Shown: positions 1,735-53,433 of the stretch, in pieces | How positions within the stretch are numbered: the first letter of the stretch is position 1 | How the letters are laid out: each line of letters starts with the position of its first letter | Source: Clostridia bacterium | GTDB taxonomy: Bacteria; Bacillota; Clostridia; TANB77; CAG-508 | NCBI GenBank assembly: GCA_017517685.1 | Contig: JAFWYK010000010.1 | Span: 237-64,236 of the forward strand | DNA: 64,000 nt | Direction of reading: 5' to 3' | Notes under the pieces: model-generated | What the model saw: the letters and a program-made list of their open reading frames with translations, nothing else | Databases searched by the model: none | What the model was told of the DNA's origin: nothing | Made by a program: the position numbers and the translations under genes

Positions 1735-1926
1735 TTGATGGAGAATTAGTAGAAGATCCAATTAATGGAATGGATCATTCTATTAAGAAAAACTGTCTGG
1801 TTGTTTTTGAAACTGATGCAATAAAAAATATGCAAACACAGTTATAGATAAGCCGGTAAGAAAAATAAACGATATAAAATTAGGTGCAGAACACGATGTT
1901 CGTTAATTGAATAAGAAAAGTATTTT

Positions 1927-1957
1927 AGTATAAAAATGACTTCTTTTGGAAATAATG
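1927..1957 (+). promoter_or_regulatory. forespore (sigma-F/G-type) promoter candidate for sigG
   Basis: AGTATA, 15 nt, GGAAATAATG. This fits the remembered consensus G[C/T]ATA-15-GGnnAnAnT. Confidence 0.45.
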
Positions 1958-1980
1958 AAAATAACATTATATTCCAAAGG
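1939..1980 (+). repeat. copy 2 of the 42-nt element; its hairpin overlaps the sigG SD
   Basis: CTTTTGGAAATAATG-aaaataa-CATTATATTCCAAAG (1943-1979). The 3' arm runs into AAAGGAGG (1976-1983). Confidence 0.6.
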
Positions 1981-1992
1981 AGGTTTTTTATT

Positions 1993-2766
1993 TTGATAAA
2001 CAAAGTAGAAATAGCAAATGTAAATACCTCTAAATTACAAGTTTTAACATCAGATGAAACAAAAGAATTATTTAAATTAATGAAAGATGGAGATAAAAAT
2101 GCAAGAGAAAAAATTATAAATGGAAATTTAAAATTAGTACTTAGTGTAATTCAGAGATTTTGTGGAAGAGGTGAGAATGCAGATGATCTTTTTCAAATAG
2201 GATGTGTAGGTTTAATAAAGGCGATAGATAATTTTGATACAAGCTTAGATATTCAACTTTCGACTTATGCGGTACCAATGATAATAGGTGAAATAAGAAG
2301 ATATTTAAGAGATAATAATATGGTAAGAGTTAGTAGGTCTATTAGAGATTTAGCATATAAAGTGCTTCAATCAAAAGAAAAGTTAATAAGGGAAAATGGA
2401 AAAGAACCTACTATAGAAGAAATTGCAAAAGATCTTAATGTAGATAAAGAAGAAATTGTAGTAAGCTTAGATGCAATTCAAGATCCTATATCTCTTCAAG
2501 AGCCAGTATATAATGATGGACAGGAAAGCTTATATGTAATGGATCAGGTAAAAGATAAGAAAAACACAGATGAATTATGGACAGAAAATATAACGATGGA
2601 AGAAGCATTGAAAAAGTTAAATGATAAAGAACGAATGATAATAGATAAAAGGTTCTTTGAAGGTAGAACACAAATGGAAGTTGCTGATGAAATAGGAATA
2701 TCTCAAGCACAAGTCTCAAGATTAGAAAAGACTGCACTTGAACATATGAGAAGGTTATATAAATAA
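1993..2766 (+). CDS. sigG: sporulation sigma factor SigG
   Basis: Near-colinear with remembered B. subtilis SigG: NKVEI..TSKL.VL, NGNLKLVLSVIQRF, STYAVPMIIGEIRRYLRDNN, ISQAQVSRLEK. TTG start at 1993 sits 9 nt after AGGAGG. The track ATG at 1936 lacks an SD. Confidence 0.9.
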   Translation: MINKVEIANVNTSKLQVLTSDETKELFKLMKDGDKNAREKIINGNLKLVLSVIQRFCGRGENADDLFQIGCVGLIKAIDNFDTSLDIQLSTYAVPMIIGEIRRYLRDNNMVRVSRSIRDLAYKVLQSKEKLIRENGKEPTIEEIAKDLNVDKEEIVVSLDAIQDPISLQEPVYNDGQESLYVMDQVKDKKNTDELWTENITMEEALKKLNDKERMIIDKRFFEGRTQMEVADEIGISQAQVSRLEKTALEHMRRLYK

Positions 2767-3003
2767 TTAAAAGTCTACGAGTATTAAATCTTCACCAATT
2801 ACTTTTATGTAATTCCAAGGTATTGTAATATCAGATTCACTCGAAAGTAAACTAAAGAATTTATTATTACCAGGAACGATAATTTCCTTTATATTACCGG
2901 TTTGAAAATCGGCAGTTACATCTTGGACATATCCTAATCTAGTTCCATTTTTAATATTAATAACTTCTTTGTGTTTGAAATCTAATCCTTTTTTCTTGCT
3001 CAT
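2767..3003 (-). CDS. ylmC: YlmC/YmxH-family sporulation protein (PRC-barrel)
   Basis: MSKKKG...LGYVQDV..D...G.I..IIVPG. ATG at 3003 follows AGGAGG. Its stop abuts the sigG stop with zero spacer. Confidence 0.8.
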   Translation of the reverse strand: MSKKKGLDFKHKEVINIKNGTRLGYVQDVTADFQTGNIKEIIVPGNNKFFSLLSSESDITIPWNYIKVIGEDLILVDF

Positions 3004-3037
3004 AAATCCTCCTAATGCTTTAAATATATGCAAATAT

Positions 3038-3066
3038 TTGATTTTTTATTCCAAATATGGTGTAAT
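3038..3066 (+). promoter_or_regulatory. sigma-A-type promoter in front of GC-rich cassette A
   Basis: TTGATT, 17 nt, TGTAAT. The composition switch to GC-rich begins about 10 nt downstream. Confidence 0.4.
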
Positions 3067-3119
3067 TATTATAAGTTCGGACTTTACGTCCGTTCAATAT
3101 GAAAGCGAGGTATGACCTA

Positions 3120-3404
3120 ATGATCAAGAAAATCTTAACAACTGCTGCACGGACTATTTTATCATGTGTAGCAATCGCAGCTACCCTTGGCGCACTTTAT
3201 GTCCTCTCTATTGGACTTAGCGCCGCCGCCACGTACGTGAAGGACATCATCTTCAAGCTCTGGACCTATGTGTCTGGAAACTGGATTGCTGTCATCGTTA
3301 TCGTTGTGTTGGTTGCTCTTGGCACGATCGTGTACGACGGTATCTCTGACTCTGTGAAGAGCTGGAACAGAAACCGTAAACACAGAAAAAATGCCGGCGA
3401 GTAA
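3120..3404 (+). CDS. small two-TM membrane protein with basic C-terminal tail (cassette A, foreign composition)
   Basis: ATG at 3120 lies 9 nt after GAGG; the alternative ATG at 3099 has no SD. TM1 ILSCVAIAATLGALYVLSIGL, TM2 NWIAVIVIVVLVALGTIVY, tail KSWNRNRKHRKNAGE. 51 G+C in 3201-3300. Confidence 0.6.
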   Translation: MIKKILTTAARTILSCVAIAATLGALYVLSIGLSAAATYVKDIIFKLWTYVSGNWIAVIVIVVLVALGTIVYDGISDSVKSWNRNRKHRKNAGE

Positions 3405-3433
3405 GGCGAACTGTGAGACCGCGTCTTGAAATG

Positions 3434-3457
3434 CCGGCGAAATTTCGCCGGTTTTTT
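3434..3457 (+). terminator. intrinsic terminator of cassette A
   Basis: Perfect 18-nt palindrome CCGGCGAAATTTCGCCGG followed by T6. Confidence 0.8.
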
Positions 3458-3690
3458 CATTTTTATATATTAAAAAATATATAGGGTTGTGCTTTAGAAT
3501 GAATTTTAAATTAGCTTTTATATTATAGAGGGAAATTAGTAAAGCTATTTGTGTTTTTTTATTAAAATTAATTCTCGAGTGTTTTAGGGTATATAAATAA
3601 GCTATAATCAAAATATAATTAAAAATAAAAATAATCATAAAACCTTTTTTACATGAATATATTGTAACCATGTAAGAGAGGTGTATTTTT

Positions 3691-4530
3691 TTGGAAAAAA
3701 TTTTAGATGAAAACGAGAGAATAAAAAGAGCTGAGGAACTTTATTTTAGAAGAAATAATAAAGAAGTTAGTTTTCAAGGCTGTAAAGCAAATAAAAGCTA
3801 TTATGGAATGAAAAATAAATTGTTATTTCATCTGCTATTAATGTTTAATATTTTTGTCCTAGTATTTGTTATTCAAAACAAAGATTATGTGTTCAGCTAT
3901 GATTTTAATAATCAAATTAATGAATGGATGTTAAAATTATCAAATTATGTAAAAAGTATGGTTTATGAAATAGAAAAAGAAGAAAATAAAAATACTGTAG
4001 AAAATGATAGCGAGATATTAAATGAAAAAAATGAAACAGGTATTGTAAGCAATGAAGATATTCAAGATGATGAAAATAAAATAAACGAAATACAATCAAG
4101 TAGTGCAAGTCTTATGGAAGAAGATGTTAAAAATTTAAAGAATATATACAAATTTGTCAATCCTATATCAGGAGTTATTAGTTCAGAATTTGGTGCAAGA
4201 GAATCAAAATATCAGAATGTTAGAGGATATCACACTGGGATTGATGTTGCCTCAGAAACTGGAACACCAATTGTTGCTAGTATGGAAGGGATTGTTGAAG
4301 AAGTATCAAGTTATGGAGATTATGGAAAACATTTGAAAATAAGATGTAATAATGTAACTACTTTATATGCGCATTGCTCGGAAATCTTTGTAAAAAAAGG
4401 ACAAATTGTTGGCATGGGACAATTAATTGCAGCTGTCGGAAGTACAGGAAATAGTACTGGACCACATTTGCATTTTGAAATCAGGATTGATGATAGATTC
4501 GTAGATCCAGGGAAAGTAATTAAGTTTTAA
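3691..4530 (+). CDS. membrane-anchored M23/LytM metallopeptidase (SpoIVFA/SpoIIQ position)
   Basis: N-terminal TM segment LLFHLLLMFNIFVLVFVI. The C-terminal domain has intact YHTGIDV and GPHLHFE metal motifs. TTG start after AGAGAGG. Confidence 0.75.
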   Translation: MEKILDENERIKRAEELYFRRNNKEVSFQGCKANKSYYGMKNKLLFHLLLMFNIFVLVFVIQNKDYVFSYDFNNQINEWMLKLSNYVKSMVYEIEKEENKNTVENDSEILNEKNETGIVSNEDIQDDENKINEIQSSSASLMEEDVKNLKNIYKFVNPISGVISSEFGARESKYQNVRGYHTGIDVASETGTPIVASMEGIVEEVSSYGDYGKHLKIRCNNVTTLYAHCSEIFVKKGQIVGMGQLIAAVGSTGNSTGPHLHFEIRIDDRFVDPGKVIKF

Positions 4531-4540
4531 AGGAAAATTT

Positions 4541-5149
4541 ATGAAAGTAAGTGTTGATTATAAGATAATTATAGTTATAGGATTATTAATAATTTTTGGA
4601 AAAATAGATTTATATTTTATTTTTGCAGTATCAATTATTTGTCATGAATTGGTTCATATATTGATTGCAAAAATAATGGGCTTTAAGCTTATCGAATTAC
4701 ATTTTGGTATCTTTGGAATGAGTGCTAATATAGCTTTTTTAGGAAAAGTAAAAGTTTTAAGTAGAGTTTTATTTTATATTTCAGGACCTTTAATGAATTT
4801 TTTTATTGCAGAGGTATTTAAAAATATTAATTATGAAGTTACATATATAAATGTTGCCCTTGGAATATTTAATTTATTACCAATTATACCACTAGATGGA
4901 GGGGAGATACTTTTAGAATTAGTTAAAGCATTTATTGGAAGAGATCAAGCTAGTGAAATAATTTTGTGCTTTACTAAAATTTTTCTATTTATAATTTCTA
5001 TTTTGTATGCTGCAATTTTAATTGAAGTAAAGAATATCTTTTTAGTATTTCTATTATTATATTTGTGGTACTTGTATTATATAGAAGATGAGAAATGGAT
5101 GCTGTATAAAAAAGCTAGAAAATGTATAAAAGATATTGAAATAAATTAA
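4541..5149 (+). CDS. M50 site-2 protease, SpoIVFB-like, short form
   Basis: HELVHILIAK (HExxH) in a TM segment, plus NLLPIIPLDGG. 202 aa with no room for a C-terminal CBS domain. Confidence 0.75.
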   Translation: MKVSVDYKIIIVIGLLIIFGKIDLYFIFAVSIICHELVHILIAKIMGFKLIELHFGIFGMSANIAFLGKVKVLSRVLFYISGPLMNFFIAEVFKNINYEVTYINVALGIFNLLPIIPLDGGEILLELVKAFIGRDQASEIILCFTKIFLFIISILYAAILIEVKNIFLVFLLLYLWYLYYIEDEKWMLYKKARKCIKDIEIN

Positions 5150-5194
5150 AAATAATAGTAAATTGTAGATATAAAGTGAAAAGGAAAAAAGTAA

Positions 5195-5635
5195 ATGAAA
5201 AAATATGGAATAATATTAATTTTAATAACAGTAATAATGGTTTTATTAATTGTCGTTAATATAAAACATTCATCAAATGATGGGGTTAATTTGTTAATGC
5301 TAAATAATATGTATTCTGATATTGAAAAAATTGATAATGAGATTGCAATGTATTATTTAAATTATGGATATCTTCCTGTTAACAAAGAAAGAGCTGCAGA
5401 ATTTAAAGATAAATCAATTAACCCTAATGATAGTGAAGAATATTATGAAATTGATTTAAGTGTTCTTGAAGAATTAGATATAACATATGGTAAAAAAGAG
5501 TTTGGAGAAGATGACGTATATATTATAAATTATCAAAGTCATACTGTTTATTATGTAAAAGGTGTGACTTATGGCGAAAATACATATTATACAAGACCAG
5601 TAGAATATGAACAAGTAGAATTAGAAAAGTATTAG
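5195..5635 (+). CDS. hypothetical N-terminally anchored protein
   Basis: ORF with an N-terminal hydrophobic segment IILILITVIMVLLIVV. No motif recognised. Confidence 0.5.
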   Translation: MKKYGIILILITVIMVLLIVVNIKHSSNDGVNLLMLNNMYSDIEKIDNEIAMYYLNYGYLPVNKERAAEFKDKSINPNDSEEYYEIDLSVLEELDITYGKKEFGEDDVYIINYQSHTVYYVKGVTYGENTYYTRPVEYEQVELEKY

Positions 5636-5644
5636 AGGTAAGAT

Positions 5645-6496
5645 ATGAAAGAATTTATAAGAAAACATCCTAATATGGTTGTATTTATTATAGCGATAAT
5701 AATGATTGTGATTAGTTTTTTATATGGTTTCTATATTGCTCAAGAAGAAGCATTTTTTATACCAAATCATGATGAAGAGGCATATATAAGATTAAAGCAA
5801 AATGATGAGTTTGAAGAAGTACATATAACATCAGATGGATTAGATTTGTATGGTTGGGTTAGACCTATAAATAAAGAAGAGAAGAAACCACTTTTAATTA
5901 TGTACTTAGGAAATGCACAAAGTTCATCAAATTTTTTAGCTAATGGTTATTTTTTAGATTATATAGATGATTATCATCTTTTGATAGTTGATTATCCTAA
6001 ATATGGATTGAGTAAAGGAAGTTTAACGGAGAAAGAATTATTTAAATCTGTATTAGGAATATATGATTATGGTAAAACTCTAGAATATGTTGATGAAAAC
6101 AATATCTGTGTTTTAGGATACAGTATTGGTACAGGTATGGCGACATATGTTGCTTCGCAAAGAAATGTAAATGGATTAATATTATTAGCACCATATGATA
6201 ATGCATTAAATTTATATAATGATAATATTAATGTATTTTACGGACCACTTAGAAATATAACAAGATATAAATTAGAGTCTGACAAATATGCTAAAAGTGT
6301 TAAGGCCAAACCATTGATAATTGCAACAAAAAGTGATGAAGTAATTAACTATAAACATGCAGAAGATTTATCAAAAAGCTTTAATGAGTTAGAAAAATTT
6401 TTATTATTAGAAAATCCATCACATGGAGGCCTAATAATAGAAAAAGAAGTTTGGGTGGAAATACAAAATTATTTACAAGAAACTCTTGTCAAATAA
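5645..6496 (+). CDS. alpha/beta hydrolase, membrane anchored
   Basis: SD GAGG. N-terminal TM segment and nucleophile elbow GYSIGTG. Confidence 0.65.
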   Translation: MKEFIRKHPNMVVFIIAIIMIVISFLYGFYIAQEEAFFIPNHDEEAYIRLKQNDEFEEVHITSDGLDLYGWVRPINKEEKKPLLIMYLGNAQSSSNFLANGYFLDYIDDYHLLIVDYPKYGLSKGSLTEKELFKSVLGIYDYGKTLEYVDENNICVLGYSIGTGMATYVASQRNVNGLILLAPYDNALNLYNDNINVFYGPLRNITRYKLESDKYAKSVKAKPLIIATKSDEVINYKHAEDLSKSFNELEKFLLLENPSHGGLIIEKEVWVEIQNYLQETLVK

Positions 6497-53138: not shown

Positions 53139-53170
53139 AAGTCTTAGGTAGAAATGCCTAAGACTTTTTT
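53139..53170 (+). terminator. intrinsic terminator after the two-component operon
   Basis: GTCTTAGG-tagaaatg-CCTAAGAC followed by T6. Confidence 0.85.
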
Positions 53171-53173
53171 GCA

Positions 53174-53219
53174 TAAAAAAAGAGGGAACCACAGCCTTAG
53201 CGGCCGCGGAATCCCTTTT
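53174..53219 (-). terminator. intrinsic terminator of cassette D (overlaps its stop codon)
   Basis: Minus-strand RNA AGGGAUUCC...GGUUCCCU followed by CUUUUUUU. The stem is imperfect. Confidence 0.5.
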
Positions 53220-53388
53220 TTGTGGTGAGCGGAACAGAAATGTCGACTTTTCTACAGACTCTGAATTCATCGCCTTCTTGGATAACATAAGCCTTAAGCT
53301 CAAGATATCTATCTACTTTCCGAAGGTGAGCGAGTCTTTGGTCCGCGTCTTCTTGGGTTTTTTCCATGAATACATTTGTAAATGTCAT
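53197..53388 (-). CDS. 63-aa soluble protein, unknown (cassette D, foreign composition)
   Basis: ATG lies 8 nt after GGAGGG. MTFTNVFMEKTQEDADQRLAHLRKVDRYLELKAYVIQEGDEFRVCRKVDISVPLTTKKGFRGR. 46 G+C in 53201-53300. Confidence 0.5.
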   Translation of the reverse strand: MTFTNVFMEKTQEDADQRLAHLRKVDRYLELKAYVIQEGDEFRVCRKVDISVPLTTKKGFRGR

Positions 53389-53433
53389 ATGAAAAGCCCT
53401 CCGTTTCGATATAATTGTTGATTCGACTCTTTA

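Follow-up and report, generated by a model that had tools for sequence, protein, structure and literature searches.

Gene A and Its Transcription Unit

The stretch of DNA analyzed here, called the window, covers 64,000 nt of contig JAFWYK010000010.1 from a Clostridia bacterium. Its subject is gene A, a small gene on the forward strand that starts with ATG and encodes a protein of 94 amino acids (aa); it lies between ylmC (TIGR02888, PRC barrel) on one side and the genes of an M23 peptidase and an M50 protease on the other (table 1). The M23 neighbor has an intact HxxxD...HxH motif, and the M50 neighbor is a protein of 202 aa whose sole NCBIfam match is a weak, sub-threshold one to RseP, with no SpoIVFB model matched. 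The GC content is 47% in the open reading frame (ORF) of gene A and 44.8% in positions 3038–3457, compared with 28.8% in the whole window. A preliminary description of this DNA had noted the location and the GC-richness, the two hydrophobic helices and the basic tail of the product, the self-contained transcription unit, and the lack of homology to anything characterized; our inspection of sequence and hydropathy, and family searches that stayed empty at threshold, agree with it in all these points. It had also taken the gene for a cassette that splits a sporulation cluster, and its product for a possible class II holin or small membrane toxin; both proposals are taken up below.

Table 1. Coordinates of gene A, its transcript and protein features, and further genes discussed in the text (window positions unless a relative's locus is named; GC3, GC content at third codon positions; dN/dS, ratio of nonsynonymous to synonymous divergence; TM, transmembrane helix).
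Feature	Coordinates	Strand	Remarks
Candidate ylmC promoter	3024–3052	-	Divergent, overlapping the gene A promoter; GGAATA 3052–3047, 16 nt, CATATAT 3030–3024; by eye
Putative gene A promoter, sigma-A-type, extended -10	3038–3066	+	-35 TTGATT 3038–3043; 17-nt spacer; TG 3058–3059; -10 TGTAAT 3061–3066
5' stem-loop	3078–3092	+	CGGAC-UUUAC-GUCCG; a few nt past the putative +1
Shine–Dalgarno sequence	3107–3110	+	GAGG, 9 nt 5' of the ATG; from sequence
Gene A coding sequence	3120–3404	+	94 aa; orphan family; GC3 0.55; dN/dS 0.17–0.23 against orthologs
TM1	3153–3230	+	Residues ~12–37; moderate to weak hydrophobicity (Kyte–Doolittle); rich in Ala/Gly/Ser/Thr
Palindrome CACGTACGTG	3230–3239		Species-specific
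TM2	3282–3338	+	Residues ~55–73 (hydrophobic segment ~53–73); strong hydrophobicity (Kyte–Doolittle); conserved G-N turn before it
Palindrome CACGATCGTG	3323–3332		Species-specific
Basic C-terminal tail KSWNRNRKHRKNAGE	3357–3401	+	Predicted cytoplasmic (positive-inside rule)
12-nt repeat, copy 1, AAATGCCGGCGA	3389–3400	+	Last codons, K-N-A-G-E
12-nt repeat, copy 2	3429–3440	+	5' arm of the terminator
Intrinsic terminator	3433–3457	+	8-bp stem, 4-nt loop, T run; CCGGCGAAATTTCGCCGG at 3434–3451 is a perfect 18-nt palindrome
Gene B (cassette B)	44760–45400	-	170 aa from ATG 45314; GC3 0.52; monocistronic orphan; between mfd and a putative TrmH-like methyltransferase gene (by eye)
Gene C (cassette C)	53170–53430	-	63 aa; GC3 0.41; monocistronic orphan; after pflA
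p104	L018 613–924; L019 1316–1630; L020 690–1010; L031 613–933		Missing from window 3458–3690 and from L021

A consensus scanner missed the putative promoter of gene A because of the G at the second position of its -10 element. The relatives, which are referred to by locus numbers such as L018, all have TATAAT at identical spacing, and the -35 element is kept even in family members with only about 30% identity at the protein level. Transcription would start at about 3073–3075. The promoters of gene A and ylmC appear to stand back to back (window 3015–3070) and would then be mutually exclusive: the candidate ylmC promoter, by eye of a forespore sigma-F/G-like type, has a GCATA...CATA counterpart in L018, L020, and L031, and its overlap would account for the close preservation of the spacer in the gene A promoter. 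At the place matching the Shine–Dalgarno (SD) sequence, the relatives have GAGG, GGGGAG, GGAGG, or GGAAGG. An in-frame ATG upstream of the start, at 3099, was considered as part of a dual-start holin motif and rejected, as it has no SD and is not conserved, being missing in L007. The terminator is the sole terminator-like site in 2700–3800, and with these putative ends the transcript would measure about 385 nt, of which the ORF takes up 74%.

The 12-nt direct repeat and the two 10-bp palindromes that the preliminary description had pointed out are present, the repeat being exact and its second copy lying in the 5' half of the perfect palindrome of the terminator. A 12-nt direct repeat arises in 0.3% of dinucleotide-preserving shuffles of 3038–3457. 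Its first copy is identical in L008 and L021 (82%-identical orthologs), partial in L007 (CCGGCAAG), and absent in L018, L019, L020, and L031. A regulatory alternative hairpin was rejected as its function, since pairing of the 3' arm with one copy or the other leaves a hairpin before a U run all the same, and since only a close subclade has the repeat; it is a probable historical duplication. At least two 10-bp palindromes are found in 2.3% of shuffles of the ORF, and the 64 kb contain no further CACGWWCGTG. The palindromes were rejected as functional sites, as they are restricted to contigs of the same species and missing from every ortholog.

Inheritance and Composition of Gene A

When 1.84 billion representatives were searched exhaustively with a profile, and a collection of 5.8 billion clusters was searched twice, the result was a family of only 15 clusters with lengths of 88–103 aa and identities of 27–82%, in which R11, Y27, and N54 are nearly invariant. 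The preliminary description had named a homolog family with a known housekeeping role as the finding that would speak against it; what these searches returned is a previously undescribed, small, and lineage-specific family, all 15 clusters of which are uncharacterized. No donor-like homolog was found among the 5.8 billion clustered proteins or the 1.84 billion representatives, and no phage, plasmid, or viral relative was found by tblastn against INPHARED and PLSDB or in a scan of IMG/VR.

In all of the 15 recovered loci (nine distinct sequences), which are all the fetched loci with a family member, gene A stands in the same slot between ylmC and the M23–M50 pair, the pair being seen wherever the contig reaches. 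The order is sigG, ylmC (on the opposite strand), gene A, in some loci a gene termed p104, M23, M50, a gene for a protein of about 145 aa (p146), and rpsF, and the slot is unchanged even for the members with 27–38% identity (L018, L019, L020, and L031). It should be noted that the relatives were retrieved with gene A itself as the query, so that a lineage with an empty ylmC–M23 site could escape. A scan of genome contigs with the M23 protein gave one distant Clostridia metagenome-assembled genome only (L011, 37% identity), where the neighborhood is different.

Between the window and L021, synonymous divergence (dS) is 0.65 for gene A, 0.71 for sigG, 0.81 for ylmC, 0.95 for M50, and 1.17 for M23, and dN/dS of gene A is 0.18 in this pair (for other pairs see table 1). 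Neither mobility genes nor notable flanking repeats were found near gene A, the sole flanking pair being a 24-nt AT-rich repeat of 75% identity. A recent insertion or mobile cassette was therefore rejected, given the fixed slot in the relatives, the divergence in step with the neighbors, and the lack of mobility features; the inspection of the ylmC–M23 spacer in relatives that the preliminary description had proposed finds the gene in every recovered relative that has this locus, against the insertion that its wording implied. The constant slot, the neighbor-like dS, a dN/dS of about 0.2, and the absence of phage, plasmid, and viral relatives together indicate vertical inheritance, with probable transcription as an independent unit: gene A is an old, resident gene and not an inserted cassette.

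The composition of the gene is nevertheless that of a stranger, with a GC3 of 0.55 versus 0.135 ± 0.07 for 43 long ORFs of the window. This property is conserved across the whole family, which the preliminary description had not seen: GC3 is 0.41–0.60 in every member for which DNA was at hand and 0.08–0.27 in the adjacent genes, and in L018 the entire contig has 22% GC and the gene next to gene A 13%. The shift mainly consists of fewer A-ending codons, TTA and ATA being nearly abandoned in the family; the third positions hold A at 0.48, C at 0.06, and G at 0.08 in the host, and A at 0.19, C at 0.25, and G at 0.24 in the family. The ribosomal-protein genes within the window have a GC3 of about 0.18, and ordinary translational selection is therefore not the explanation of the shift. 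Third positions differ between subclades by 54–72%, where full randomization at the composition of the gene would give 72–76%, so that they are 75–95% randomized. With third positions this close to random and GC3 at least 0.41 everywhere, the ancestral state must be largely erased and the composition near an equilibrium of its own. From the sequences compared, the GC-richness looks like an equilibrium long maintained against AT pressure, and not like the fading trace of a transfer.

At least one further orphan gene of the window, B, behaves like A. Its promoter is TGATATAAT, its SD is strong, and it shares a terminator with mfd; its four orthologs, at 69–81% identity, all have a GC3 of 0.51–0.52 between flanks of 23–26% GC. 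Singleton synonymous changes in three-against-one comparisons are 22 GC>AT and 12 AT>GC, where the host bias would lead one to expect about 6.7:1 (P = 8e-4). Gene C also has its own TGATATAAT promoter, a GGAGGG SD and its own terminator, with a NotI site (GCGGCCGC) at the stop codon, and the identical protein recurs, in unchanged context throughout, in 213 blocks from the assembly collection. The promoters of B and C are of the TGnTATAAT type. No family match was found for either protein, nor a relative of B in INPHARED or IMG/VR or of C in IMG/VR. Upstream of mfd, on the forward strand at 40703–40936, lies a gene for a 77-aa protein with a single TM and a basic, charged tail (GC 0.38, GC3 0.38), possibly a fourth, less marked case of this compositional class.

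Atypical GC content in a bacterial genome is routinely taken as a mark of recent transfer, and gene A carries this signal yet is syntenic and diverges with its neighbors. An older event could be invoked: A, B, and C would have been acquired long ago from a GC-rich donor or a mobile element and would since have ameliorated in parallel in all lineages. A composition and codon usage foreign to the host are what such an origin predicts, A, B, and C alike are GC-rich orphan units, each with a promoter and a terminator of its own, and GC3 varies among lineages over the range given above. Amelioration is hard to combine, however, with third positions that are so nearly randomized while GC3 has nowhere fallen below 0.41, with the constant GC3 of the B orthologs, in which GC>AT changes are far too few for neutral decay, or with the lack of donor-like homologs and of mobility features, and we regard it as quite improbable. 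The case is a warning that long-established resident genes may be mistaken for islands or cassettes when such calls are based on GC content.

Local GC-biased gene conversion at a recombination hot spot would be another way to raise GC content without selection on the gene. It could draw on a partial incongruence between the tree of gene A and its neighbors (L007 versus L021), and on a block from sigG to p146 that is more divergent than its flanks. The GC-rich stretch, however, matches the transcription unit and not the divergent block, within which the neighbors M23, M50, and ylmC have a GC3 of 0.11–0.21; the effect needed (from 0.13 to 0.5) is also, to our knowledge, far above anything reported for bacteria. 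We consider this explanation highly improbable.

Proposed Selection on the Transcript

The limits of the GC-rich stretch match those of the transcription unit, roughly from the putative transcription start site to the terminator. The stem-loop near the 5' end is shared in position by most relatives, with stems that differ in sequence (CGGAC/GUCCG, UUCGGG/CCCGAA, AUCGG/CCGAU, and CUAAGC/GCUUAG); it is strong in L007 and L009/L021, moderate in L018 and L031, and weak in L019 and L020. In an alignment of five sequences, four of the five pairs of this stem have changed on both sides, with 92% of cells paired, and in the terminator helix all cells are paired, with compensatory changes in three pairs. 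For the two hairpins jointly, 97% of cells are paired and 7 of 15 pairs have changes on both sides; none of 500 shuffles reached the observed covariation. The match between GC-rich stretch and transcription unit, taken with the terminator and a 5' hairpin that has been kept, suggests that selection acts on the RNA, probably for stability.

We therefore propose, at roughly even chances, that gene A is a resident small membrane-protein gene whose transcript is selected to be GC-rich and A-poor. It would be a monocistronic gene of an AT-rich, spore-forming lineage of Clostridia that encodes a helical-hairpin protein of the inner membrane and has a sigma-A-type extended -10 promoter of its own, which would yield an mRNA with a 5' stem-loop, a good SD, and a perfect intrinsic terminator. 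Selection would act at the RNA level: framed by two hairpins, a body rich in GC and poor in A would make an unusually structured mRNA, resistant to AU-directed decay, which could be long-lived or available when the bulk of mRNA is not. The protein itself may be a small component of the membrane with a structural or regulatory role, perhaps acting with the neighboring membrane-anchored M23 and M50 proteins, rather than one for lysis or toxicity.

Stabilizing stem-loops at the 5' terminus are a feature of certain Firmicute mRNAs, such as the aprE leader and ermC. These messages resemble that of gene A in having a stem-loop a few nt from the (here putative) 5' end, which in gene A is kept by compensatory changes, as well as a strong SD and a strong terminator. 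They are unlike it in that the whole transcript body of gene A also stays GC-rich and A-poor over long evolution, and we know of no description of such whole-body GC maintenance for them. A search of the literature on GC-rich genes maintained in AT-rich Clostridia, or on sporulation-linked holin-like proteins, returned nothing relevant.

Several observations weigh against selection on the transcript. The minimum free energy (MFE) of gene A family members is -0.28 to -0.33 kcal/mol/nt versus -0.16 for AT-rich neighbor genes, but relative to synonymous shuffles the z-scores are only -0.1 to -3.5. The transcript body has no convincing conserved fold, the consensus reaching -38 kcal/mol compared with about -115 for single sequences, with many broken pairs; given this and the modest z-scores, any selection would be on composition and not on a particular structure. 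Avoidance of the nuclease motifs TACAT, ACA, and AAAT or of runs of A or T was looked for, but their frequencies do not differ from those in synonymous shuffles. Polarized synonymous changes in close pairs of gene A number 12 GC>AT and 14 AT>GC, figures of little weight with an outgroup near saturation. By eye, B and C lack a 5' hairpin comparable to that of gene A. In L007, sigG and ylmC are as close to the window as those of L021, whereas gene A is far more distant (57% identity, dS about 1.5), which suggests accelerated evolution or exchange of alleles at this gene. Finally, we infer the promoter, the transcription start site, and the mRNA stability of gene A from the sequence.

A primary product in the form of a structured regulatory RNA, that is, a dual-function small RNA with the ORF secondary, is a related alternative that we think very unlikely. 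A GC-rich transcript of this length with its own promoter and terminator in an AT-rich genome would suit it, and so would an MFE z-score of -2.2 versus dinucleotide shuffles and double changes in some internal helices. Purifying selection on the protein is clear, however, the ORF fills most of the transcript, the consensus fold of the body is poor, and Rfam gives no match. A structured RNA gene at this place was rejected on empty Rfam (gathering score, E ≤ 10) and ARAGORN searches. Neither the window nor six related loci contained an Rfam 15 family that reached the gathering score, the best E values in 2900–3700 being 3–6, and ARAGORN and Rfam over the whole 64 kb gave no tRNA gene, no Rfam family at the gathering score, and no riboswitch or T-box.

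If the transcript of gene A is indeed under selection for being GC-rich and A-poor, composition itself would be a selectable, gene-specific trait in an AT-rich bacterium, and a short list of candidate mRNAs for tests of message protection would be at hand. One may go further and suppose that A, B, C, and possibly the 77-aa gene form a class of privileged transcripts from clade-specific orphan genes, whole units held GC-rich and A-poor in a genome of about 13% GC3, whose mRNAs escape AU-directed decay or an RNA shut-off; this extension is doubtful. Such a shut-off could occur in late sporulation, in dormancy or germination, under an endoribonuclease toxin, or in phage defense, and these genes would then provide the few proteins made once bulk mRNA has been destroyed.

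The Protein and Its Neighborhood

Protein A has two predicted TMs, and the small-residue character of the first persists in distant members of the family, most of which also have basic tails; by the positive-inside rule, a topology with both termini inside (N-in/C-in) is predicted. Two AlphaFold runs gave low-confidence helices only (predicted local distance difference test [pLDDT] about 70, predicted template modeling score [pTM] 0.32–0.33), and in one model (pLDDT 69, pTM 0.33; low confidence) the break between helices at residues 52–55 falls on the conserved G-N turn. No match at threshold was obtained in Pfam, PHROGs, NCBIfam, PADLOC, or PDB sequences, and a Foldseek comparison of the model with the viral structures of BFVD found none. 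The family adds an undescribed type of small membrane protein to a sporulation-associated M23/M50 locus.

The resemblance to class II holins that the preliminary description had drawn from topology stands as far as topology goes. Like the pinholins (phage 21 S21 68), protein A is a small two-TM protein in which TM1 has many small, weakly hydrophobic residues and the highly charged tail should lie in the cytoplasm; unlike them, it is chromosomal and syntenic, has no lysis cassette and no conserved dual start, and has no sequence or profile similarity to them (hhalign probability 0.3% for the family profile versus the phage 21 pinholin, the sequence of the latter entered by hand). The nearest approach to a known family is PF07332 (Phage_holin_3_6, formerly DUF1469), with sub-threshold matches that cover both helices in 6 of the 15 members (best E = 0.002; 14–18.5 bits compared with a gathering score of 28.4). 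This family shares the two-TM architecture and has some chromosomal, nonphage members, but the scores lie below gathering and the gene A family is shorter (88–103 aa compared with about 116 profile positions). The E. coli protein YqjE is a genuine member of PF07332, and hhalign gave 0.2% probability for the family profile versus YqjE.

A holin- or pinholin-like permeabilizer or small membrane toxin, domesticated for lysis of the mother cell, autolysis, or export and perhaps working with the M23 peptidase, could nevertheless be imagined from the two helices with their weakly hydrophobic, small-residue TM1 and charged C-terminus, from the PF07332 matches, and from the intact motif of the adjacent peptidase. 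No family threshold is reached, however, the hhalign probabilities are 0.2–0.3%, and BFVD has no match; no phage, viral, or plasmid relatives exist among the databases searched, the context is chromosomal in 15 of 15 loci, and PF07332 itself includes nonlytic chromosomal proteins such as YqjE. A lethal product is also hard to reconcile with a separate unit that has a constitutive-looking promoter and a strong SD. The consensus scan found no antisense or convergent promoter 3' of gene A, and its sole minus-strand match (3097–3068) is not conserved in relatives. Type I toxins, the form of small membrane toxin to be considered here, are usually shorter than 60 aa and have a single TM, which a protein of 94 aa with two TMs does not fit. 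We judge a lytic or toxic role to be distinctly unlikely.

Another unlikely alternative is that protein A is a nonhomologous analog of BofA, the inhibitor of SpoIVFB in B. subtilis: it would be a two-TM partner or inhibitor of the neighboring M50 protease, and the M23 protein would take the place of SpoIVFA. BofA is likewise a small two-TM protein, gene A adjoins an M23 (LytM)–M50 pair that is arranged like spoIVFA–spoIVFB and linked invariantly across the clade, and no BofA-like ORF was found within the window. In clostridia, nonorthologous LytM proteins are found at the spoIVFA position, possibly with a different control of pro-sigma-K processing (Galperin et al. 2012, PMC3533761), and these remarks on SpoIVFA replacements fit such a role. 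Protein A has no similarity to BofA, however, neither as a Pfam match (PF07441, none at E ≤ 1) nor by hhalign (0.1% probability versus the B. subtilis protein, its sequence entered by hand), and BofA lacks a basic cytoplasmic tail. The gene A promoter is sigma-A-like and not of the mother-cell sigma-E type, synteny at such depth can persist without a functional link, and p104 intervenes in distant relatives. In view of the small size of the M50 protein and the lack of a match to any SpoIVFB model, the M23/M50 pair may not be SpoIVFA/B.

The intervening p104 is an AT-rich protein of about 104 aa with a C-terminal TM and no Pfam match, encoded between gene A and M23 in distant relatives (table 1) and lacking in the subclade of the window; tblastn found no remnant of it in the corresponding spacer of the window. 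A region of L011 (2784–3140) resembles a relative of p104 by eye, and the same contig has, at 1990–2170, an intergenic patch of about 180 bp with 43% GC and several GC-rich hairpins, upstream of a protease-like gene and without an Rfam match.

Compared with L021, the block sigG–ylmC–A–M23–M50–p146 (window 1928–5664) has a dS of 0.65–1.17 and 79% nucleotide identity, whereas the flanks (a DnaB-like gene on one side and rpsF–ssb–rpsR–dut–carD on the other) have a dS of 0.08–0.36 and 89–94% identity. The sharper divergence of the sporulation block suggests a mosaic recombination history. Two further genes differ between these loci: a 283-aa hydrolase-like gene at 5645–6496 of the window is not present in L021, and L021 encodes, at 1888–3789 between the DnaB-like gene and sigG, a membrane protein of 633 aa with a Gly/Ser-rich tail.

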